This document shows, one piece after another, positions 4,019-22,132 of a stretch of 64,000 nucleotides of DNA (the stretch's first letter is position 1; each line of letters opens with the position of its first letter). The notes under the pieces were generated by a model. The model had not been told where the DNA came from. It saw only the letters and a list, made by a program, of their open reading frames with translations, and did not search any database. The stretch covers positions 70,975-134,974 of the forward strand of contig CAWDSI010000014.1 of NCBI GenBank assembly GCA_963804915.1, written 5' to 3'. The position numbers and the translations under genes are program-made. The stretch is from an uncultured Acidobacteriota bacterium. Lineage in GTDB: Bacteria; Acidobacteriota; Thermoanaerobaculia; UBA5066; Gp7-AA6.

Positions 4019-5780
4019 CTTCCCAGGCGCGCAGGCCCTCGCGCGCCGCCGCCGACCTGGGCTCGATCGCCAGGGCTCGACGCCAGGCATAGAGCGCGAC
4101 GGGCCGGCGCTCCGCCGCGAGGATGAGCGCGAGGCGATACGCCAGCGGCAGCGACCGCGGGTTCTGGCGGAGACCGTCCCGGTACGCGCGCTCCGCCCCG
4201 GCCGTGTCGCCGAGGGCCTCCTTCGCGAGTCCGACGCCGAAGAATCCGTTCTCGTAGGTCGGAGCGATCCTCAACGCTTCCTCGTAGGCGCGAAGCGACG
4301 CGCGGGGATCCCCGAGCTCGCGCTCCATCCGGCCTCGTCCCGCCCAGGCGTCCCAGTACCCCGGATAGATCTCGGTCGCCCGGACGTAGTGCTCGAGCGC
4401 ACGGCGCGGGTGCCCGGTCTGCGCCGACATGTAGGCATAGTCGTAGTGCGCCTTGGCGCTCTTCGGAGAAACCCGGAGCATGTTCGTGAAGAGCGCCTCG
4501 TCGCTGGCCCACACGGGATTGCGGACGATCGTGCGCATCGACAGAAGCAGGGTCGCGGCGCCGAGGACGGCGAGACGTCTCCGCGGCAGCGCGTCGAACG
4601 CCGGGGCGGAACCGGCGATCCAGGAAGCCGCGATCAGGCAGAAGCCGGCCGACGGCAGGTAGGCGAGTCTTTCGGCGAAGATCGTTCCCGTCGGAAAGAG
4701 CAGGTTCGAGGTCGGCAGGGCCGCCACAGCCATGAAGAGAAAGCCCAGCGCCGGCAAAGACTTCTCGCGGAGCCTGCGAAGCGCCGCAACCCCGAGCAGC
4801 AGGAGCAATCCCGCCGCGGCCCAGGCCGTGGGATCCGCGAGGCCGAGCGCCCGGATGGACCAGGCCGACTCGTCCGACGAGAGCCGCAGGGGAAGCGCCA
4901 GCCGTCCGAGCGTCCGGACGAACACCGCGCAGGCATTCAAGCTCCGGACGAGCGGCGGAAGCGGCGCGAAGGGATTCTCGAGCTCGAAAATGCCGGTGCG
5001 TTCCGACTTCAGAGGCCCGCCGAGCACCCCGGAGCGTATCCAGAAGACCGCTCCCAGAACGAGGGCCGCGCCGACGTAGAACGGGAGGCCGCGCGAGAAC
5101 GCGGAGCGCAATCGCGGACCCAGGCCATTCGAATCCGACTCCCTGGAATCGGGCTCCTTTGAATCGGACCCGGACCACGCCAGAATCAGGAACAACAGCG
5201 CCGGCGCGACCGCCGCGCTCTCCTTCGTGAGGTTGCCCAGGAAATAGAGCAGCAGCGCTCCGGCCCAGGCCCACCACCGCCTCGGTCCCCCGTCGACGAA
5301 ACGCAGCGCGCAGAGCAGACATCCCAGAACCAGGGTCGCGGCGAGCGTCTCGCCTCGGCCGACGATGCTGGTCACCGCCTCGACGTGTATCGGGTGCACC
5401 GCGAAGAGGAGGGCGGCCCCGACGGCGACCGGCGGCGGCGCGAGGCGCAGGAGCAGCCGGGCCAGGAGCAGCGTCGCCGCGGCGTGCCACAGGAGATTGA
5501 CGACGTGGAAGGGAACCGGATCTGCGCCGTGGATCCACCACTGCGCGGCGAACGAGAGCAGAAGCAGCGGACGGTAGGCCGTGCCGGTGCCCTTCGCGCC
5601 TCCGAAATACTGCGTGGTGAAGAGGTCGACGACGCGCTCGGGAGACCGCAGCCGGAAGTTGTCCCGGACGATCGCCTTGTCGTCGTAGGTGAATGCGCCG
5701 GTCAGCCCGTTGGCGTAGGCGAGAGCGCACGCGCCGAGCAGCAGGAGCGCCCACGGAAGCCGGAGGCGCTCGCGCGTCAC
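3978..5780 (-). CDS. polytopic membrane protein with C-terminal TPR repeats (PMT_2/TMTC-like glycosyltransferase family)
   Basis: The N-terminus has many hydrophobic helices (WALLLLGACALAYANGLTGAFTYDDKAIV). The C-terminus has TPR repeats (AHYDYAYM.., AWAGRGRMEREL..). Start trimmed to the GTG at 5780, which overlaps the sdaAA stop (GTGA). The ORF-track extension to 6515 is an off-frame shadow over sdaAA. Confidence 0.75.
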   Translation of the reverse strand: MTRERLRLPWALLLLGACALAYANGLTGAFTYDDKAIVRDNFRLRSPERVVDLFTTQYFGGAKGTGTAYRPLLLLSFAAQWWIHGADPVPFHVVNLLWHAAATLLLARLLLRLAPPPVAVGAALLFAVHPIHVEAVTSIVGRGETLAATLVLGCLLCALRFVDGGPRRWWAWAGALLLYFLGNLTKESAAVAPALLFLILAWSGSDSKEPDSRESDSNGLGPRLRSAFSRGLPFYVGAALVLGAVFWIRSGVLGGPLKSERTGIFELENPFAPLPPLVRSLNACAVFVRTLGRLALPLRLSSDESAWSIRALGLADPTAWAAAGLLLLLGVAALRRLREKSLPALGFLFMAVAALPTSNLLFPTGTIFAERLAYLPSAGFCLIAASWIAGSAPAFDALPRRRLAVLGAATLLLSMRTIVRNPVWASDEALFTNMLRVSPKSAKAHYDYAYMSAQTGHPRRALEHYVRATEIYPGYWDAWAGRGRMERELGDPRASLRAYEEALRIAPTYENGFFGVGLAKEALGDTAGAERAYRDGLRQNPRSLPLAYRLALILAAERRPVALYAWRRALAIEPRSAAAREGLRAWEVSGRDPRGPAARP

Positions 5781-13540: not shown

Positions 13541-16500
13541 ATGACGCCCGCGACCGCTGCGGAATGCCTTAAGCTCAGTCGGTTCCCATCGCGAGGCGAA
13601 CGAAGAACCTTGAACACCCGGCTCATCGCGGCCGCGCTCCTCTGGACGGCGGTGCTCCCGGCGCGCGCGGTCTCGCGGATCGTCGAGCCCGCGAGTGTTC
13701 CGCGCGCCGACGCTTCCGTCCTCGCCGCGCTCCGGCGGGGCGACGCGACGCTCGACGTTCTCGTCGGGATTCGGGAGGCCGCGGCTCTGCGGGAGCGCCT
13801 TCCGCGGCGCGACGCGGAGAGCCGCCTCGAGGCCCAGCGGCGGATCCTCGCCGCGATGCGCCCCGGAACCGTGCGTCTGCGCCGCCAGTACACCGGCTTC
13901 TCCGCCTTCGCGGCGCGCGCGACGCGGACGTCCGTCCTCGCGCTCGCGAACCGTTCCGACGTCGCCTGGATCACGCTCGACGCGGTCCGCTACGCCTCCG
14001 ATACGGAGCCTCAGGCCGCCCAGCGGCTCATCCGATCGAGCGACGCCAACGCCCGCGGATTGGACGGATCGGGTCAGACGATCGCCATTCTCGATACCGG
14101 GGTCGACTACAACGCTCCGGGCCTCGGCGGCGCCGCGTTTCCGAACGCGAAGGTGGTCGGCGGCGCCGACCTCGGCGACGACGACGCGGACCCCATGGAC
14201 TGCGAGGGCCACGGCACGTCCGTGGCGTCGGTCGCGGCCGGCCCCGCCGGGGTCGCGCCCGCGGCCCGGCTCGTCGCGCTGAAGATCTCCCCGACCACGA
14301 GCTGCGGAACGGCCCAGGACTCCGACATCCTGGCCGCGATGGACTGGGTGCTCGCCCACCGCGACGAGTTCGACATCGGCACCGTCAATCTCTCCTTCGG
14401 CTCGACGCCCTTCGACGGACGGGACCACGGCTACTGCGACGCGGAGATTCCGCAGTACGCGGCGGCGGTCGAGGCCCTGAACGCCGCCGGTGTCGTGCTG
14501 ACGGCGGCCGCCGGCAATGAAGGCGTGACGAACGCCATCTCGGCGCCGGCCTGCCTGTCCGGCGCGTTGGGGGTCGGCGCGGTCTATCCCGATTTCTTCA
14601 CGTCGGTCTCCTGGGGCGCCGGGGCAAACGAGTTCTGCGGGGATCACTCGGTCGGGCCCGATTCGATCGTGTGCTTCTCCAACTCGGCTTCGAGCCTCGC
14701 CCTCCTCGCGCCCGGAGCCTTCTGGAACGTCGAGACGCTCGGCGGCGCCGCCGAAGAGTTCCACGGAACCTCGGTCGCGGCGCCTGCCGTCGCCGGCGCC
14801 GCGGCGCTCCTGCGTCAGGCGCGGCCCGGCCTGTCTCCTTCGGCGGTCGCGAGCCTCCTGCGTGCGACGGGCCGGCCCGTCTCCGACGACCGCAACGGCG
14901 TTCTCGCGCCGCGCGTCGACGTGCTCGCGGCGATCGACCTTCCCGACGAGGCCTTCGGCGCGTTCGACGGGACGCCCGTGGCGTTGCCGGACGGCACGTC
15001 CGCGGCCGTGACGGCGACGGCGACGATCTCGGGCTTCTCCGGCAACCTCGCGAGCGTCGCGGCGGTGGTCGAGATCGAGCACGACGACCCCCGGCAGATC
15101 GTTGCGACGCTCATCGGCCCGGACGGCACCCGCGTGCGCCTCCACGATCGGACCGGATCTCCCGGACGGCCCATCAACGCCATCTACGGACGCACGCTCG
15201 GCGCCGCCCAGTCGCTCAAGGCCTTCGAGGCGAAGCTCGCGAACGGGACCTGGACGCTCGAAGTGACCGACGAGGTCCCCGGTGTGGAGGGGCACATCCG
15301 GAATTTCGCCGTCCGGCTGACGGCGGGTCAGCCCGCCGTGGCGATCCCGCGTAACGCCGCGGCTCGAGTCCTTCCCGTCGTCGGGCGGGTCCAGGGTACG
15401 AAGTTCTTTCTGTCCGACGCGCGGGTGTTCAACCCCGGCGAGGCGCCCAACACCCTGTCGCTCTTCTACGTGCCGCAGGGCGCGAGCGGTGCGCAGGCGG
15501 TCCGGGCGACGCGCACGGTCGGTCCCGGGGAGGTCCTCGCTCTCGACGACGTGATCGGCTCCGAGTTCGGATACGACCAGTCGATCGGCCAGATCACGGT
15601 GACCGGCTCCGACCCGGGCTTCCTCGCGACGAGCCGCGCGTATACCCGCGGCGGCAACGGCACGTTCGGCGTCTTCGTTCCGTCCTTCGCGATCTCCGGG
15701 GCGATCGGGCCCGGTGAGACGGCGACGGCAAACGGCCTCTTCAAGGGCCAGGTCCGGCACACGAACGCGGGCTTCACGGAGGTCTCGGGCTCCCCCGCGA
15801 CCGTCCGCATGGACCTCTACGGCTTTGACGGCCTCCTCCTCGCCTCGGCCACGCGCGCGGCGCCGCCCAACGGCAGCGTCCTCGTGACCGACATCGTCAC
15901 GGACCGCGGCCTCGGCGCCACGCCCAACTTCCGCATCGACTACACCGTCGTGAGCGCGGGCGGCCGCGTCGTGCCTTACGCGACCGTCGTCGACGACACG
16001 ACCGGCGACGGGTTGTTCGCGGCGGCGGAGCGCGTGCCTCTCTCGTCCGACGACATCGTGATCGCCCAGGCCTCGCATGCCACCGGCGCGAACTCGGACT
16101 TTTTCCGTACGGACCTGTACGTCACGAACGTCTCGGGCTCGCCGGCGACGTTCACGATGACGCTTCTGCCCCGAGTGGTCCACGGGACTCCGCCGGACCC
16201 CGCGACCGTCACTCTCGCCGCGGGGCAGACTCTCGAAGCGACCGATGTCCTGCCGACGTACTTCGGGATCGGGGATCCGTCCGCGGCCGGTGTGCGGATC
16301 CACCCGGCGGGCCCGGCGCGCCTCCGGGTCTCGAGCCGCACGTACGTCGAGAAGTTCGGCGGAACGTTCGGCTTCTCGATACCCGGGGTCCCGGTCTCCC
16401 GCGCCATCGGGGCGGGAGACGGCTTCGCCACGATTCTCCAGCTCGACCAGAGCTCCGCGGCCCACGGATTCCGCTCCAACGTCGGCTTCGCCGAGGTCAC

Positions 16501-16759
16501 GGGCGCGGATGCGCTCGTCCTCATCGAAGTGCTGGGCAGCGACGGACCGACTCCGATCCACGCGCGATTCACACGCCCCGTCGCCGGAGGGCAGTCGGTC
16601 CAGTTCCCCCTCAGCGACTTTCTGACGTCGGCCGGCGGTCGAAACCTCTACGTTCGCGTGAGCGTCGAGAGCGGCGCCGGCCGGATCCTCGCCTACGGCG
16701 TTTCGATCGACAACATCTCGGGAGACGCGATCTACATCCCCGCCGAAACCATAGAATAA
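13541..16759 (+). CDS. secreted subtilisin-family (S8) serine protease with proprotein-convertase P-domain and two about 200-aa C-terminal modules of unknown function
   Basis: Catalytic triad motifs ILDTGVD, HGTSVASV, GTSVAAPAVAG. P-domain pattern VEIEHDDPRQIVATLIGPDGTRV...GTWTLEVTD..G.IRNFAVRL. An alternative TTG start at 13610 would give a classical signal peptide, MNTRLIAAALLWTAVLPARA/VS. Confidence 0.9.
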   Translation: MTPATAAECLKLSRFPSRGERRTLNTRLIAAALLWTAVLPARAVSRIVEPASVPRADASVLAALRRGDATLDVLVGIREAAALRERLPRRDAESRLEAQRRILAAMRPGTVRLRRQYTGFSAFAARATRTSVLALANRSDVAWITLDAVRYASDTEPQAAQRLIRSSDANARGLDGSGQTIAILDTGVDYNAPGLGGAAFPNAKVVGGADLGDDDADPMDCEGHGTSVASVAAGPAGVAPAARLVALKISPTTSCGTAQDSDILAAMDWVLAHRDEFDIGTVNLSFGSTPFDGRDHGYCDAEIPQYAAAVEALNAAGVVLTAAAGNEGVTNAISAPACLSGALGVGAVYPDFFTSVSWGAGANEFCGDHSVGPDSIVCFSNSASSLALLAPGAFWNVETLGGAAEEFHGTSVAAPAVAGAAALLRQARPGLSPSAVASLLRATGRPVSDDRNGVLAPRVDVLAAIDLPDEAFGAFDGTPVALPDGTSAAVTATATISGFSGNLASVAAVVEIEHDDPRQIVATLIGPDGTRVRLHDRTGSPGRPINAIYGRTLGAAQSLKAFEAKLANGTWTLEVTDEVPGVEGHIRNFAVRLTAGQPAVAIPRNAAARVLPVVGRVQGTKFFLSDARVFNPGEAPNTLSLFYVPQGASGAQAVRATRTVGPGEVLALDDVIGSEFGYDQSIGQITVTGSDPGFLATSRAYTRGGNGTFGVFVPSFAISGAIGPGETATANGLFKGQVRHTNAGFTEVSGSPATVRMDLYGFDGLLLASATRAAPPNGSVLVTDIVTDRGLGATPNFRIDYTVVSAGGRVVPYATVVDDTTGDGLFAAAERVPLSSDDIVIAQASHATGANSDFFRTDLYVTNVSGSPATFTMTLLPRVVHGTPPDPATVTLAAGQTLEATDVLPTYFGIGDPSAAGVRIHPAGPARLRVSSRTYVEKFGGTFGFSIPGVPVSRAIGAGDGFATILQLDQSSAAHGFRSNVGFAEVTGADALVLIEVLGSDGPTPIHARFTRPVAGGQSVQFPLSDFLTSAGGRNLYVRVSVESGAGRILAYGVSIDNISGDAIYIPAETIE

Positions 16760-16764
16760 GAGGG

Positions 16765-19527
16765 ATGTCGCCGGATCCTTCGCGCCCCGCGGGCGTCCTG
16801 AAACCCTGGCAACGCCGCCTCTACGGGCTCCTCCTCATCCCTCTCGGACTGATCGCGGCGAACTCCATCTTCATCGCGGCCTTCACCCGCGACACGGCGT
16901 TCTTCTACGCGATGCTGCTCCTGCATCTGACGCTGGGCGTGCTCATCGCCATTCCCTTCTTCGTCTTCGCCGTGACCCACGCCAAACGAATGATCCGGAT
17001 GTGGAACAAGCGCGCGAAGTACGCGGGCCTCGCCATCTTCACGCTGGCGATCGTCTGCGTCTCGACCGGCGTGTTCATGATCTTCCGCGGCGCGACGCTC
17101 GCCAATCGCGCGATCTGGCTCGCCCACGTCGCGTCGGTTCCGCTGGCCCTCGTGGCTTTCATCCTCCACCGCCGGGCCCACACGCACCGGCTGCAGTTCC
17201 GCCGGCTTTACGCCTGGGGCGGCGCCGTGGCTCTCTTCCTGGCGGCGATGGCGGTCCTCGCCCGGCTCGAGAAACCGCCCAAACGCATCGTGAACGTCAA
17301 CGGCGACACGGTCTTCTATCCCTCGGCCTCGGAGACGTTCGACCAGGGCCTGCTGGACGGGAAGAAGCTCGCGGCCAACGAGTACTGCAAGAGTTGCCAC
17401 CCCGACTCGTTCCATCAGTGGGAACGCTCCGCGCACCGCTTTTCCTCGTTCAACAACCCGTTCTATCGAAAGAGCGTCGAGCTCATGGCGGATCAGGTCG
17501 GCCGCGAGAGGACGAAGTGGTGCTCGGGATGCCACGATCCCGTCGTTCTCTTCACGGGGCAGATGGGCGCGGCGACTCAGGCCGCGTTCTCCTACGACTC
17601 CTGGGAGGCGCAACAGGGGTTGACCTGCATGTCCTGCCACTCGATCGCCGAGGTCAAGGACACGGGCGGCAACGGAGCCTACGTGATCGAGGAGTCGAAG
17701 CAGTATCCGTTCGCCTTCACGGACAACGCGGCGCTGGCCGCGGTCAACCGGCTGCTCATCCGCATGGAGCCCTCGCTTCACCGCAAGACGTTCATGAAAC
17801 CCTTCATGCGGACGCCCGAGTTCTGCTCCACGTGCCACAAGGTCGCCCTGATTCCGGCCCTGAACGGCTACCGCTGGCTCCGCGGCCAGAATCACTACGA
17901 CACCTGGTACGACTCGGGCGTCTCGGGGCGCGCGGTCCGGTCGTTCTACGATCCGCCCAAGGCCAAGGCCTGCCGCGACTGCCACCTGCCGGATTTCCCG
18001 TCGGCCGAGTTCGGCAACAAGAACGGCTACCTCCACGATCACCTCTTTCCGGCCGCGAACACCGCCCTGCCCTTCATCCGCCAGGACGCCGCGACGCAGA
18101 AGCGGACCGAAGACTTCCTGAAGGACAAGGTGCTGACGGTGGACCTGTTCGCCGTGCGGCGCGAGAACGGCGAGCTCGTCGTGCTCGGCGAGACGCCGCC
18201 CGGCCTCGTCGTCCGGCCCGGCGAGACCCTCGACGTCGAGGTGGTCGTGCGCACGCGCGGCATCGGGCATCCCTACACGAACGGCACCGCCGACTCGAAC
18301 GAGACCTGGGTCTCACTCGAGGCCGAGGCGGATGGACGCGGATTCTTCGCGAGCGGCGTTCTCGATGAGACCGGGCGCCTCGACGCGGGCGCCGACCGGC
18401 TATGGACGCTCGTGATCGACGAGAACGGCGGCCACATGGATCGCCGCCAGCCGCAGGACATCCGTGTGCCGCTCTACAACAACGCGATCGGCCCGGGCGC
18501 CGCCCGCGTCGTCCACTACCGGATGACCGTCCCGAAGGACGCGAAGGGATCGGTGACCCTGTCCGCCGGGACGCACTACCGCAAGTTCACGCGCGACTAC
18601 ACGACGTTCTCGCTGGGGGCGGCCCATCCGTCGCTGCCGGTGACGACGCTCGCCCGCGACGCGGTCACGCTCGCGGTCGGACGGCCTCCCGCAACCGGTC
18701 TCCCGACTTCGGCCCCGCGCGGCAACCCCGATCCCCTCTGGCTGCGCTGGAACGACTACGGCATCGGCCTCTTCCTGCAGGGCGACCTCAAGGGCGCGGC
18801 GGCCGCGTGGACGAAGGTCACGGAGCTCGCCCCCGACAAGCCGGACGGGCCCCTCAACCGCGCCCGCGCCGAGATCGCCGAGGGCCGGCTGCGCGACGCG
18901 AAGGAATCGCTGGCCGAGGCCGAGCGACGGCGGCCGGGCTGGGGCAAGACGGCGTTCTTCCGCGCCGTCGTATCCAAGGACGAGGGACGCCTCGCGGACG
19001 CCGAAACGGATCTCCTCGCGGTGCTCGACAAGTTCCCCCTCGACCGCGTCGCCTGGAACAACCTCGGCCTCGTCTACTGGCTGGACGGAAAGTTCCCCGA
19101 AGCGATCGCCGCCTACGGGAAGACCCTCGCGATCGATCCGGAGGACTTGAACGCGCATTACAACCTGATGCGCGTCTACCGGGCCACCGGCGACCGGAAG
19201 AACGCCGAGATCCACGATGCGGCCTACCGCAAGTTCAAGGAGGACGAGTCGATTCGCGCGGTCCCCGGGAAGTTCCGCCTCGACAACCCGTTCGCCAACC
19301 GGGAATCGCTGCCGATTCACGTCCACGCCGAGGCCGCGCCGCCTCCCGCGTCCGCCGCGGACTGGGTCGCCTCGATTGGACCGAAGGGCTACGAGACCGA
19401 CCACGGTTACCTCACGCGCGCGCATCCACCCGTGCCGAGCGAGCAGGATCAGTGGTCGTACGTGTCGGCGCATCGGAGCGGGCAACCCGTCGCGCCGTCC
19501 GCGCCGCGCGTTTCGTCGGCCCCCTGA
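16765..19527 (+). CDS. membrane-anchored pentaheme c-type cytochrome (Cytochrome_C554-like) with C-terminal TPR domain
   Basis: About five N-terminal hydrophobic helices. Five CxxCH motifs (CKSCH, CSGCH, CMSCH, CSTCH, CRDCH). C-terminal TPR repeats (AWNNLGLVYWLDGKFPEAIAAYGKTLAIDPEDLNAHYNL). Starts 6 nt after the S8 protease stop. Confidence 0.85.
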   Translation: MSPDPSRPAGVLKPWQRRLYGLLLIPLGLIAANSIFIAAFTRDTAFFYAMLLLHLTLGVLIAIPFFVFAVTHAKRMIRMWNKRAKYAGLAIFTLAIVCVSTGVFMIFRGATLANRAIWLAHVASVPLALVAFILHRRAHTHRLQFRRLYAWGGAVALFLAAMAVLARLEKPPKRIVNVNGDTVFYPSASETFDQGLLDGKKLAANEYCKSCHPDSFHQWERSAHRFSSFNNPFYRKSVELMADQVGRERTKWCSGCHDPVVLFTGQMGAATQAAFSYDSWEAQQGLTCMSCHSIAEVKDTGGNGAYVIEESKQYPFAFTDNAALAAVNRLLIRMEPSLHRKTFMKPFMRTPEFCSTCHKVALIPALNGYRWLRGQNHYDTWYDSGVSGRAVRSFYDPPKAKACRDCHLPDFPSAEFGNKNGYLHDHLFPAANTALPFIRQDAATQKRTEDFLKDKVLTVDLFAVRRENGELVVLGETPPGLVVRPGETLDVEVVVRTRGIGHPYTNGTADSNETWVSLEAEADGRGFFASGVLDETGRLDAGADRLWTLVIDENGGHMDRRQPQDIRVPLYNNAIGPGAARVVHYRMTVPKDAKGSVTLSAGTHYRKFTRDYTTFSLGAAHPSLPVTTLARDAVTLAVGRPPATGLPTSAPRGNPDPLWLRWNDYGIGLFLQGDLKGAAAAWTKVTELAPDKPDGPLNRARAEIAEGRLRDAKESLAEAERRRPGWGKTAFFRAVVSKDEGRLADAETDLLAVLDKFPLDRVAWNNLGLVYWLDGKFPEAIAAYGKTLAIDPEDLNAHYNLMRVYRATGDRKNAEIHDAAYRKFKEDESIRAVPGKFRLDNPFANRESLPIHVHAEAAPPPASAADWVASIGPKGYETDHGYLTRAHPPVPSEQDQWSYVSAHRSGQPVAPSAPRVSSAP

Positions 19528-19849
19528 CTTTTCGCGGCGACGCACAATCGTGCGCGTCGGCAAGAAATCGCGGTTGCACGCGATCATTACGATATAGATT
19601 GATGTCGACGGGGCGTCCAAGTCCGATGCCGTCGATCGCAGAGCCCGACCGCGGGCGTGATCGATGAGCGATTTGGGAGAAACCGACGATCGTCGAGTTC
19701 CTGGGTGAAACCGCAACGCGTCTTCCGGAGACGCCGGCACGAAGACGGCCCCCGACACGAGGGCCGCCCGATGGGAGACAACGGGCGAAAACTTCGGGCG
19801 GCGCCCGGGACCAATCCCTCCGCCTGATCCCAAACAAGGAGAACCAACG

Positions 19850-20323
19850 ATGGCGATGAGAAAGAGAGTCGCGAGGAGGCGGGTGCGAAGGGCCGTGCGC
19901 AGGGTACGCAGGGTCAGGCGCGTCGCCAAGAGGGCGGTGGGCGGCCGCGGAGTTCGGAAGAACGTGGCTCGCAGGCGGCTTCGCCGGACCGTGAGGAGGG
20001 TCGCACGCCGTCGCGCCCGGAGGGGCGCTGGGCTTCGCCGGGCCGTCGTCCGGAGGGCCGTGGCTCGCCGCGCCGTCAAGAGAGCCGTCGTGCGTCGCAG
20101 AGTCAAGAGAGCCGTCGTGCGCCGCGGAGTCAAGAGAGCCGCCGTCCGCCGCGGAGTCAAGAGAGCCGCCGTGCGCCGCGGCGTCAAGAGAGCCGCCGTG
20201 CGCCGCGGAGTGCGCCGCCGGGCCGTGAAGAGGACCGCAGTTCGCCGGGTCGTCCGGGCCGCAAAGAAGAAGCAGGTCGCGGCGGATCTGGGGATGACCT
20301 CGCCGATGTTCCAGTCGAGCTAG
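19850..20323 (+). CDS. hypothetical highly basic Arg/Val/Ala tandem-repeat protein (157 aa)
   Basis: ATG preceded by AAGGAG with 8-nt spacing. G/C-rich third codon positions support this frame. By my count it has 57 Arg, 12 Lys and 1 Asp. It contains 9-aa repeats, KRAAVRRGV. It has its own upstream 320-nt non-coding region and a downstream hairpin. I recognise no homolog. Confidence 0.55.
   Translation: MAMRKRVARRRVRRAVRRVRRVRRVAKRAVGGRGVRKNVARRRLRRTVRRVARRRARRGAGLRRAVVRRAVARRAVKRAVVRRRVKRAVVRRGVKRAAVRRGVKRAAVRRGVKRAAVRRGVRRRAVKRTAVRRVVRAAKKKQVAADLGMTSPMFQSS
20075..20209 (+). repeat. 5 tandem copies of a 27-bp unit (gtcaagagagccgccgtgcgccgcgga) inside the Arg-rich CDS
   Basis: Units begin at 20075, 20102, 20129, 20156 and 20183 with only a few substitutions. 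They are contiguous with no spacers. Confidence 0.9.
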
Positions 20324-20347
20324 CGGCGCCGTATCGGCATCCGTGAA

Positions 20348-20380
20348 GGCAATCTGTCGCCGCCCGGGCGGCAGATTGCC
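20348..20380 (+). terminator. GC-rich stem-loop downstream of the Arg-rich gene (putative intrinsic terminator, no U-tract)
   Basis: In ggcaatctg-tcg-ccgcc-cg-ggcgg-cagattgcc, a 9-bp outer stem and a 5-bp inner stem give 14 bp of pairing. It lies 25 nt after the stop codon. Confidence 0.45.
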
Positions 20381-20410
20381 CCACCCGGATCGCGGCTAAA
20401 CTCCCCTCCC

Positions 20411-22132
20411 GTGAGGCGCCTGCCGCGAATCGCCATCCTTCTCTGCCTCGCGTTCGCGTGTCGCCGCGACGAGAAAGTCGCCGTCGCTCCAAAGCCGACG
20501 CCCGCGCCTGCTCCTCCCGCGATCGCGTTCGCCGAGAAGGCCGCGGCGATGGGCATCGATTTCACGCACGTCAACGGCGCTCGCGGACAGAAATGGATGC
20601 CCGAGACGATGGGCGGCGGCGTCGCCGTGCTGGACTACGACGGCGACGGCAAGCCGGACCTCCTCTTCGTGTCGAGCGCCTACTGGCCCGACGACGAGCG
20701 GGCGAAGGGCCAGAAGAGCTCCCTCGCGCTCTACCGCAACGAGGGACCGGACCCGAACGGAATCCCGCACTTCCGGAACGTCACGCGCGAGGCGGGGCTC
20801 GAGCGGGTCGTCTTCGGGATGGGAGCCTCGGTCGCCGACTACGACGGCGACGGCAAAGATGACGTCTACGTCACGGCGGTGGGCCGTAACTTCCTGTTCC
20901 ATAACAAGGGCGGCCGCTTCGAGGAGGTCGCTTCCGCAGCGGGCGTCCGGGACAACGGCTGGGGCACCTCCTCGGCCTGGCTCGACTACGACGCCGACGG
21001 GCTTGCCGACCTCTACGTCTGCCGCTACGTCGACTGGAGCCCGAGCCACGACCTCTTCTGTACGCTCGACGGAAAGACCAAGTCCTACTGCACGCCGGAG
21101 CGCTATGCCGGCGTCCCGTCCCACCTCTACCGCAACGCGGGAGGCGGTCGTTTCATCGACGTCACGACTTCGACCGGGACGGGGAACACCAACCAGAAGG
21201 CCCTCGGGGTCGCGCCCTGGGACTTCGACGGCGACGGCCGGGTGGATCTGCTCGTGGCCAACGACACCGCGCCGAACAATCTCTTCCGCAACAAGGGCGA
21301 CGGGACGTTCGAGGACGTCGGCATCCCGGCGGGGATCGCCGTCGACGAGGCCGGCCGGGCGCGCGGCGCGATGGGCGCCGCCTGGGCCGACACCAAGAAC
21401 GGCCCCGGCGCGGCGGTGGCGATCGGGAACTTCTCGAACGAGCTCAAGTCCCTTTACTGGACGGATTCGGGCGAGGTCTTCCTCGACGAGTCGCCGCGCA
21501 GCGGGATCGGCCCGTCGTCGCTTCTGGACCTGACCTTCGGAGTCCTCTTTCTCGACGCCGACCTCGACGGCCGGATGGATCTCCTCCTCGCCAACGGCCA
21601 CGTCGAGCCCACGGTGCAGGCCGTGCAGAAGGACGTCGCGTACCGGCAGGCGCCCGCCCTCTACTGGAACGCGGGCCACGGGCGTTTCTCGCTCCTCGGC
21701 GCGCGCTCCGGCGATCTCTCGGCGCCGCTCGTCGCCCGCGGCGGCGCGTCCGCGGATCTCGACGGCGACGGCGACCTGGACGTCGTGCTCGTCGAGAACG
21801 GCGGGCCGGCGCGCGTGTACCTCAATCCGACGGACGCCCCCGCGAAGAGCGTCCGCATCCGCCTGGAAGGCGCGGGCCGGTCCAACCGCGACGCGATCGG
21901 CGCCCGCGTCACGGCCTCGATCGGAGGTCGCACGCTCACCCAGCAGGTCTCCGGAGGACAGTCCTACCTCTCCGCCTCCGAGAAGACGCTCACGTTCGGT
22001 CTCGATGGCGCCACGAAGATCGACACCCTCGAGATCCGCTGGCCCGACGGCGCCACGCAGACGCTCCGCGACGTCCCGGGCGGCGCACGTCTCGCGATTC
22101 GTCAGGAGCCAGCGGCGGCAGGAGCGCCATGA
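20411..22132 (+). CDS. CRTAC1-family lipoprotein (FG-GAP/VCBS repeats + ASPIC/UnbV domain)
   Basis: Lipobox LCLAFAC. Repeated DYDGDGKxDL / DFDGDGRVDL FG-GAP motifs. C-terminal ASPIC/UnbV pattern (IGARV..GG.SYLSASE..L.FGL.....D.LEIRWPDG). Confidence 0.85.
   Translation: MRRLPRIAILLCLAFACRRDEKVAVAPKPTPAPAPPAIAFAEKAAAMGIDFTHVNGARGQKWMPETMGGGVAVLDYDGDGKPDLLFVSSAYWPDDERAKGQKSSLALYRNEGPDPNGIPHFRNVTREAGLERVVFGMGASVADYDGDGKDDVYVTAVGRNFLFHNKGGRFEEVASAAGVRDNGWGTSSAWLDYDADGLADLYVCRYVDWSPSHDLFCTLDGKTKSYCTPERYAGVPSHLYRNAGGGRFIDVTTSTGTGNTNQKALGVAPWDFDGDGRVDLLVANDTAPNNLFRNKGDGTFEDVGIPAGIAVDEAGRARGAMGAAWADTKNGPGAAVAIGNFSNELKSLYWTDSGEVFLDESPRSGIGPSSLLDLTFGVLFLDADLDGRMDLLLANGHVEPTVQAVQKDVAYRQAPALYWNAGHGRFSLLGARSGDLSAPLVARGGASADLDGDGDLDVVLVENGGPARVYLNPTDAPAKSVRIRLEGAGRSNRDAIGARVTASIGGRTLTQQVSGGQSYLSASEKTLTFGLDGATKIDTLEIRWPDGATQTLRDVPGGARLAIRQEPAAAGAP

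Follow-up and report, generated by a model that had tools for sequence, protein, structure and literature searches.

Arginine-dominated tandem-repeat proteins of Thermoanaerobaculia resemble the basic tails of HU proteins

The window analysed here, a stretch of 64,000 nucleotides (nt) from an uncultured Acidobacteriota bacterium (contig CAWDSI010000014.1, positions 70,975 to 134,974 of the forward strand), contains an open reading frame (ORF) for a small polycationic protein between a multihaem cytochrome gene and a CRTAC1-like gene. The whole protein of 157 residues consists of a basic repeat and a 19-residue tail. It holds 57 arginines, 12 lysines, 32 valines, 27 alanines, 10 glycines, a single aspartate and no glutamate; its net charge is +68, with arginine making up 36% and arginine plus lysine 44% of all residues. 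The only proline lies within the tail, and the 157-residue sequence contains neither a signal peptide nor a hydrophobic segment. An earlier note on this DNA, made from the letters alone, had described a stand-alone unit for a poly-arginine protein that lacks a signal peptide, and on these points it held up well: its counts of arginine, lysine, aspartate and glutamate were exact on recount, its naming of the neighbouring genes (an S8 protease with a P-domain, the cytochrome and CRTAC1) agrees with domain annotation, and the locus is a transcription and translation unit of its own encoding a cytoplasmic polycation. The non-coding stretch upstream of the gene (19528-19849, 322 nt) is AT-richer, as the same source had said, with a GC content of 0.627 compared to 0.699 for the window, and an AAGGAG ribosome-binding site lies where it had been placed, 8 nt before the ATG. 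The features of the locus are collected in Table 1.

Table 1. Coordinates of the poly-arginine gene, its associated sequence elements and the flanking genes within the window.
Feature	Position	Strand	Basis or remark
S8 protease with proprotein-convertase P-domain	13541-16759		upstream neighbour
Multihaem cytochrome with TPR repeats	16765-19527		immediate upstream neighbour
Imperfect inverted repeat	19530-19567	+	arms 19530-19546 and 19551-19567, 17 nt, 76% complementary
Promoter-like patch	19574-19600	+	TTGCAC (19574-19579), 15-nt spacer, TAGATT inside TATAGATT (19593-19600)
Conserved 5' leader	19601-19849	+	about 250-255 nt, including ribosome-binding site AAGGAG at 19836-19841
Coding sequence of the 157-residue polycationic protein	19850-20323	+	ATG start; ORF call and composition count
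N-terminal basic region, residues 1-75	19850-20074	+	orthologue alignment
27-bp tandem repeat, 5.4 copies	20066-20211	+	encodes V-K-R-A-A-V-R-R-G; Tandem Repeats Finder, 90% matches, score 229
Non-repetitive C-terminal tail KKKQVAADLGMTSPMFQSS	20264-20320	+	conserved in nine orthologues
Hairpin 3' of the stop codon	20348-20380	+	14-bp GC-rich stem, no U-tract
FG-GAP/UnbV_ASPIC (CRTAC1-like) gene	20411-22132		immediate downstream neighbour

Comparison with ten related sequences established which reading frame is maintained. The sense frame is open in all ten relatives, and within gap-free alignment blocks it shows 20.8% differing residues with a mean BLOSUM62 score of +0.08, making its changes the fewest and most conservative of the six frames. 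The five other frames differ at 23-33% of residues with mean scores between -0.6 and -1.7; the closest competitor, the antisense frame that shares the wobble position, reaches 23.3% and -1.03, and the remaining four lie at 31-33%. Nucleotide differences from the L054 orthologue number 21/31/52 at the three codon positions, and a second comparison gave 22/29/56, although this excess at the third position is equally explicable by the wobble-sharing antisense frame. Within the ORF the GC content is highest at the third codon position (0.83, compared to 0.71 at the first and 0.64 at the second). That the ORF is a by-product of GC-rich repetitive DNA, or that the antisense frame is the real one, would fit with the abundance of long arginine-rich ORFs in many frames at 70% GC and with an antisense wobble-sharing frame that is likewise open in nine of the ten relatives. 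This explanation is nonetheless very improbable given the behaviour of the sense frame and the codon-position GC pattern described above; moreover, the AAGGAG, ATG, stop codon and hairpin are kept in most of the ten orthologues, the non-repetitive tail is conserved, and the antisense ORF extends beyond the gene, across the leader and into the cytochrome gene, and is interrupted by a stop codon in L048. The earlier note had worried that relatives might conserve the antisense frame instead; it is the sense frame that is better kept. We conclude that the annotated sense frame is the frame under purifying selection and that the ORF represents a true accessory gene in Thermoanaerobaculia (Acidobacteriota).

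The protein had been labelled an orphan, a view that the recovery of ten orthologues and two sister subfamilies overturns. The orthologues come from metagenome-assembled Acidobacteriota genomes, of the class Thermoanaerobaculia wherever a class is named. Candidate ORFs were recognized with a filter for sequences made of arginine or lysine plus alanine or valine and little else. A filter on plain arginine-rich composition proved useless at 70% GC, where every frame is arginine-rich. A pattern search with the single protein returned 600 stretches, just three of them true and the rest chance matches, and no record came up when the exact protein sequence was sought in public assemblies.

When the cytochrome gene was used as the query, 80 syntenic loci were obtained, nearly all from Thermoanaerobaculia metagenome-assembled genomes. 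The cytochrome and CRTAC1 genes abut (gap below 300 nt) in about 60 of these 80 loci, and the slot between them is occupied by a poly-arginine orthologue in no loci other than L048, L054, L080 and the near-identical relative L083. This slot (19528-20410 in the window) is variable across Thermoanaerobaculia: elsewhere it contains an aquaporin gene (L031, L050, L052), a porin-like gene (L013), a sulfatase gene (L049) or a PIN/antitoxin pair (L025, L045). In L083 (1612-4372) the cytochrome gene was matched by tblastn in five pieces with shifting frames, probably reflecting indel errors of the assembly, and the poly-arginine ORF is intact.

A DNA pattern derived from the C-terminal tail identified the six further orthologues (L089, L090, L091, L094, L095 and L096), none of which has a cytochrome or CRTAC1 gene adjacent to it. 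The hairpin, or part of it, is present in all six, and five of them (not L094) have kept the promoter-like patch, a leader of about 255 nt and the AAGGAG-N8-ATG arrangement. Since the flanks persist without the ORF in many genomes, the gene is accessory; since several genomes have lost the flanks and kept the complete cassette, the cassette is maintained in its own right. The earlier note had regarded loss of the ORF from otherwise conserved flanks as evidence against a real gene. Such loss is indeed what about 60 relatives display, but the cassette also persists without those flanks. Several observations were made on the individual loci. A tRNA-Val(TAC) gene lies near the cassette in four of them (L089, L090, L091 and L096), and in L090 (3102-3955) and L096 (1249-2174) the cassette sits between tRNA-Val and tRNA-Asp; the neighbours in L090 comprise a CLC channel, an EAL protein, UDG and the tRNAs. 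In L094, where the gene is on the minus strand with its stop codon near 4144, the 5' part has been swapped for unrelated sequence with no ribosome-binding site or ATG, and a 32-residue stub of the CRTAC1 N-terminus follows the gene. The arrangement points to a rearrangement that took the cassette along with a piece of its old flank. Mobile elements were considered as an explanation for the patchy distribution and found no support, with no integrase or mobile-element genes seen near the tRNA-linked cassettes. No relatives were found in viral contigs or phage genomes, and searching the protein against the phage and anti-phage models of PHROGs and PADLOC gave no match.

The elements surrounding the coding sequence are conserved to differing degrees. 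The promoter-like patch recurs as TTGCAY..GATRTAGATTG in eight orthologous cassettes from differing genomic contexts, and it may serve as the promoter of the gene, although it fails a scan for the sigma-70 consensus because its spacer is 15 nt. The imperfect inverted repeat that immediately follows the cytochrome stop codon and closely precedes this patch could be a terminator of the cytochrome gene or an operator. The sequence of the leader is conserved in eight of nine cassettes compared, unrelated loci included (at least three genomic contexts); in L080 the leader has diverged, and L048 has none, with a gap of about 40 nt after the cytochrome stop. The leader has a minimum free energy of -110.8 kcal/mol (z = -2.2 compared to shuffled versions), and in its predicted fold GGUUCAUCC pairs with GGAGAACC of the ribosome-binding-site region, which suggests a possible translational masking of this site. 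RNAalifold applied to eight leader sequences found one compensatory pair, so that an RNA structure is not demonstrated, and Rfam gave no match at the gathering threshold anywhere in the window and just noise at E<=10 within 19400-20500.

The hairpin downstream of the stop codon has the 14-bp stem that had been described. The 77-nt stretch containing it has a predicted energy of -41.7 kcal/mol (z = -3.9 against shuffles), and the structure is kept in L054, L080, L083, L089, L090, L091, L094 and L096. Its stem carries base changes in L080 and L090, and those in L080 compensate across the arms (GCAGTCTG...CAGACTGC). A scan for intrinsic terminators rejected the hairpin for want of a T-run; it is probably a transcript 3' end or a stabilising structure.

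The coding sequence itself can be divided into three parts. Residues 1-75 are not a recent tandem repeat and are well conserved among orthologues, including a glycine-rich break at about residues 31-34. They are followed by the 27-bp tandem repeat of the earlier note, which Tandem Repeats Finder reproduced, and by the C-terminal tail, whose consensus in nine orthologues is [KR]K[LQM][AV]AA[ED][ML]G[LM]xSP[ML][FL]xSS. The layout of the repeat turns over between relatives: the window and L083 have a 27-bp unit in 5.4 copies, L054 has a 69-bp unit in 2 copies together with a 27-bp unit in 2.4 copies, L080 has a 27-bp unit in 6.1 copies, and L048 has a 42-bp unit in 5 copies. Because independently assembled relatives contain equivalent repeats in layouts of their own, the concern that the repeat might be an assembly artefact can be set aside.

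Beneath this variation a regular spacing of charge is preserved. Within the repeat unit the basic pairs are spaced 5+4, and the positions of the basic residues in the window protein give a single sharp periodicity, at 80 degrees per residue or 4.5 residues; there is none at 100 degrees, where an amphipathic alpha-helix would show one. A period of 4.5-4.7 residues was also detected in the L048 orthologue, in sister subfamilies 2 and 3, in the tails of HU proteins and in the repeat regions of three fusion proteins (P0091, P0026 and P0019), all of which are described below.

The distribution and the repeat also bear on a proposal, raised as a weaker idea in the earlier note, that the protein is a multi-copy precursor from which the kexin-type S8 protease encoded nearby would release cationic peptides by cutting at KR/RR sites. 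A P-domain protease is indeed encoded upstream of the cytochrome gene, and dibasic sites are abundant in the protein. Yet a signal peptide and any hydrophobic segment are absent, the block of S8, cytochrome and CRTAC1 genes is kept in 43 related loci, of which most lack the poly-arginine gene, and the six orthologues at other loci have no cytochrome or CRTAC1 neighbours. Furthermore, the length of the repeat unit differs between orthologues, unlike that of conserved peptide cassettes. With the gene and the protease block occurring independently of one another and no signal peptide in the protein, we reject this proposal as extremely improbable.

Word-seeded and exhaustive searches extended the family to three groups of stand-alone proteins of 100-160 residues, and the metagenome homologues share the 9-residue repeat and a related tail. 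Gene callers often add false N-terminal extensions to family members. Subfamily 1 is the window type, with the tail consensus given above. Members of subfamily 2 start with MANH... and end in the tail RKLAAAEIRRMALEF; they probably derive from Vicinamibacterales, because the gene adjacent to the L088 member is 85% identical to a gene of a Vicinamibacterales genome, and in the related genomes of the L088 site the poly-arginine gene was not found at that site. Subfamily 3, found in L084 (another Acidobacteriota genome) and L085 (a Gemmatimonadales genome), has KRAVKKRAV repeats and the tail RAIIARAL..GEG. No conserved gene neighbourhood or recurrent functional partner was found across the three subfamilies. 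Two members of subfamily 2 have neighbours seen once each: the one in L001 (3792-4700) adjoins a CHAD-domain gene, and the one in L088 (986-2650) adjoins a spermine-synthase-like gene. Both neighbours relate to polyanion or polycation metabolism, each as a single occurrence. The extreme C-termini of subfamily 2 (P0001-P0005, P0013, P0031 and P0032) read RRMALEF, KRMSLGL, RRMSLEY or RRMGLEF, which we take to resemble the motifs that bind the beta sliding clamp (QLxLxF/L).

A like basic repeat was also found fused to other domains in metagenome proteins, namely a receiver domain (P0091), a DksA/TraR zinc finger (P0026) and DUF892 (P0019). In these fusions the repeat appears to behave as a portable nucleic-acid-binding module. 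For a response regulator such as P0091 it would be an unusual output domain.

The arginine content of the family is distinctive at the level of codons. As had been estimated, 21 of the 57 arginine codons in the window gene are AGA (8) or AGG (13), hereafter AGR, compared to 2 of 110 in the two flanking genes. The excess is conserved among orthologues: AGR accounts for 18-37% of arginine codons in the five tabulated genes (window, L083, L054, L080 and L048), compared to 1-8% in the adjacent cytochrome genes. Some of the AGA count in the window stems from amplification of one unit containing AAG-AGA. Within the alignment, the AGR share is 42% in columns that also contain lysine and 26% in arginine-only columns (odds ratio 2.0; p = 0.003 by Fisher's test, without correction for phylogeny). 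Part of the excess thus fits with toggling between lysine (AAG) and arginine (AGG) and with a lysine-rich ancestry, rather than with foreign origin. Subfamily 1 has an arginine fraction among basic residues, R/(R+K), of 0.77-0.83; the corresponding values are 0.47-0.64 for subfamily 3 and 0.65 for the two flanking genes. Because subfamily 3 and the flanking genes are less arginine-rich at similar GC, the dominance of arginine is a trait of the subfamily and not a mere effect of GC content.

While the earlier note considered the protein unlike HC1/HC2 or H1-like bacterial proteins, a profile built from the family alignment (A1) led to a different view. It matches dozens of HU proteins of about 210 residues (PF00216, several also PF07382 HC2) with E-values down to 6.7e-21, and the matches lie in their C-terminal AVARKAVKK repeat tails. 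Moreover, the L048 orthologue weakly matches the NCBIfam Hc2 model. The real HU tails of P0027 and P0036 scored 104 and 64 bits, respectively, compared to -18 +/- 5 and -16 +/- 4 bits for 200 shuffles of each, and therefore the profile match depends on the order of the residues and not on their composition. A helicase and a membrane transporter that appeared in the phmmer list were treated as compositional matches.

A structural model of the protein was calculated with AlphaFold2 from a 14-sequence family alignment. The model consists of one uninterrupted helix spanning residues 2-150 (mean predicted local distance difference test score, pLDDT, 85; predicted template modelling score, pTM, 0.34), with a dip in pLDDT at the glycine-rich residues 30-40 and coil at residues 151-157. 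The tail thus contains both the sole acidic residue of the protein and the only part predicted to be non-helical, its last seven residues. On an alpha-helix the 9-residue (5+4) repeat rotates successive basic pairs by about 90 degrees, and therefore the charge would cover the whole surface of the helix. This charge distribution, together with a mean hydrophobic moment of only 0.30 at 100 degrees, argues against a membrane-active amphipathic helix or a coiled coil. A pair every 4.5 residues would correspond to a rise of 6.75 Å (4.5 x 1.5 Å), close to the phosphate spacing along a nucleic-acid strand. A helix with a charge of +68 could exist only when neutralised by binding to a polyanion.

Taken together, these results favour a reading in which the protein is a stand-alone, tail-only polycation, an arginine-rich counterpart of the lysine/alanine-rich H1-like repeat domains of which chlamydial Hc2 consists, of the Bordetella/Burkholderia H1-like proteins and of the C-terminal tail of mycobacterial HupB, which would associate with the nucleoid, bind DNA non-specifically and compact or bridge it; we give this reading a probability of roughly one half. 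The free protein would probably be disordered because of its charge of +68, and on a polyanion it would fold into a long helix of about 150 residues. With its arginine or lysine pairs winding round the whole helix at close to the phosphate spacing of a DNA strand and with no hydrophobic face, such a helix would bind duplex DNA independently of sequence, neutralise its charge and so bridge or compact the nucleoid. Compaction would most likely occur in a particular physiological state, with expression being conditional and the conserved leader of about 250 nt perhaps masking the ribosome-binding site. The short C-terminal peptide, the only non-basic part of the protein, would probably serve as a handle, either for a partner or for proteolytic control and turnover. 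The earlier note had proposed a nucleoid compactor or an RNA- or polyphosphate-binding polycation, which was the right class of idea; DNA as the ligand among these is what we infer.

Several results weigh against this reading. BLASTP to the best-matching HU tail produced no alignment, and the similarity between such simple repeats could be convergent. The window protein matches no Pfam family at E<=10, PF00216 and PF07382 included; it scores 13.9 bits with NF038053, where the L048 orthologue scores 25.8 bits and the cut-off is 80, and it has no match to the Hc2 model NF038052, where L048 reaches 29.6 bits compared to a cut-off of 135. An AlphaFold2 helix for a repeat of such composition supports little on its own, given the pTM of 0.34. 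The genomic contexts examined provide no DNA-related clue, and for arginine-rich polycations RNA and polyphosphate are at least as good ligands as DNA, a choice that the sequence cannot discriminate.

One alternative ligand is polyphosphate. Arginine-rich polycations bind polyphosphate avidly, and the protein might attach to polyphosphate granules in the manner of AlgP, perhaps tethering them to DNA or organising them by complex coacervation. The CHAD-domain gene beside the subfamily-2 member in L001 belongs to a family linked to polyphosphate granules, and there is a precedent: AlgP, an H1-like repeat protein, localises to such granules and requires its basic repeat domain for granule spacing (PMC9239181). 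However, the CHAD neighbour is found in one of about ten distinct contexts and the others are unrelated, no ppk or ppx gene was seen adjacent to any member, and the 157 residues contain no KPAA-type proline-containing repeats, their single proline being in the tail. We regard a role at polyphosphate granules as unlikely.

A second alternative is an interaction with RNA or ribosomes, in which the protein would act as an RNA chaperone or condensate scaffold, modulating translation or RNA stability or forming RNA-protein condensates under stress. Arginine makes up 83% of the basic residues, and arginine-rich motifs typically favour RNA. The predicted long helix resembles arginine-rich-motif peptides such as those in viral motifs, and the gene lies near tRNA genes in four orthologous loci. 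Set against this, the closest repeat architecture is that of HU tails and Hc2-like proteins, which bind DNA, and the gene is accessory and unlinked to translation genes. There is also no similarity to a ribosomal or RNA-binding family, the best match in a sequence search of the PDB being ribosomal protein L15 at E = 3.5, which is noise. An RNA-directed function appears rather unlikely, and we retain non-specific DNA binding by a tail-like polycation as the favoured reading.

The gene defines an unannotated family that has neither a Pfam nor an NCBIfam model. To our knowledge, hardly any study has been devoted to the nucleoid-associated proteins of Acidobacteriota and Gemmatimonadota, two major soil phyla whose members are mostly uncultured. 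Should DNA compaction prove true, the protein would provide a minimal, highly regular model polycation for condensation of DNA, RNA and polyphosphate driven by charge pattern, and its presence would mark a dormancy-type chromatin state in soil bacteria. Should it be just another H1-like low-complexity protein, its orphan status is still corrected and a profile for annotation is supplied.

Among known systems, the eukaryotic protamines and protamine-like sperm proteins share with the window protein the dominance of arginine, and both plausibly arose from lysine-rich H1-like sequence. There is no homology between them, and the resemblance would be one of functional analogy only: protamines typically contain 50-70% arginine, compared to 36% here, and the window protein is much longer, has regular alanine or valine spacers and is predicted to be helical. 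The literature searched yielded no description of a bacterial protamine or of this repeat type. A speculative extension, possible but on the unlikely side, is that the family constitutes a bacterial analogue of protamines, in which arginine-dominated single-helix polycations arose from lysine-rich H1-like repeats by conversion of lysine to arginine, mirroring the route from H1 through protamine-like proteins to protamines in animal sperm. In soil Acidobacteria and Gemmatimonadota such proteins might bring about leader-switched condensation of the chromosome, or co-condensation of DNA with polyphosphate or RNA, during dormancy or desiccation, with the C-terminal peptide docking a specific partner.

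AlgP of Pseudomonas likewise has a long low-complexity basic repeat domain and is, as the window protein may be, a candidate bridge between polyanions (PMC9239181). It differs in having a KPAA repeat with a proline in every unit and an N-terminal domain, whereas the window protein has one proline and no extra domain. Closer are chlamydial Hc2 (HctB) and the H1-like proteins of Bordetella and Burkholderia, which are also small, stand-alone and composed almost entirely of short basic repeats. Hc2 binds DNA, and its size varies through turnover of intragenic repeats (PMC2848022); the number and layout of these repeats differ between close relatives, which is paralleled by the repeat turnover in the window family. 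Hc2 is built of lysine-rich pentamers within elements of about 36 residues (PMC2848022), in contrast to the arginine-rich units of 9, 14 or 23 residues found here, the scores with these models fall far under the cut-offs, and the taxon here is Acidobacteriota. On sequence evidence, the protein seems to be built and to work like an H1-like repeat domain, while membership of the Hc2, Burkholderia H1-like or HU families cannot be demonstrated for it.

The basic tails of actinobacterial HU proteins of the HupB/Hlp/MDP1 type are likewise close, having the same 9-residue (5+4) repeat of basic pairs separated by alanine or valine and the same 4.5-residue periodicity. The likeness holds especially for variants with the AVARKAVKK repeat, found in environmental Mycobacterium-like HU proteins. 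In contrast to an HU protein with a basic tail, the window protein has no HU fold and is a tail only, arginine dominates in place of lysine (R/(R+K) 0.83), and a conserved C-terminal peptide of its own is present; common descent is unproven. The tail of HupB is indispensable for nucleoid association (PMC5676037), and the window protein looks like a detached form of the basic tail on which the function of mycobacterial HupB depends. Nucleoid proteins of basic, low-complexity sequence form a well-known category, within which the new element is an unannotated, arginine-dominated, tail-only variant of the H1-like basic repeat proteins in soil phyla.

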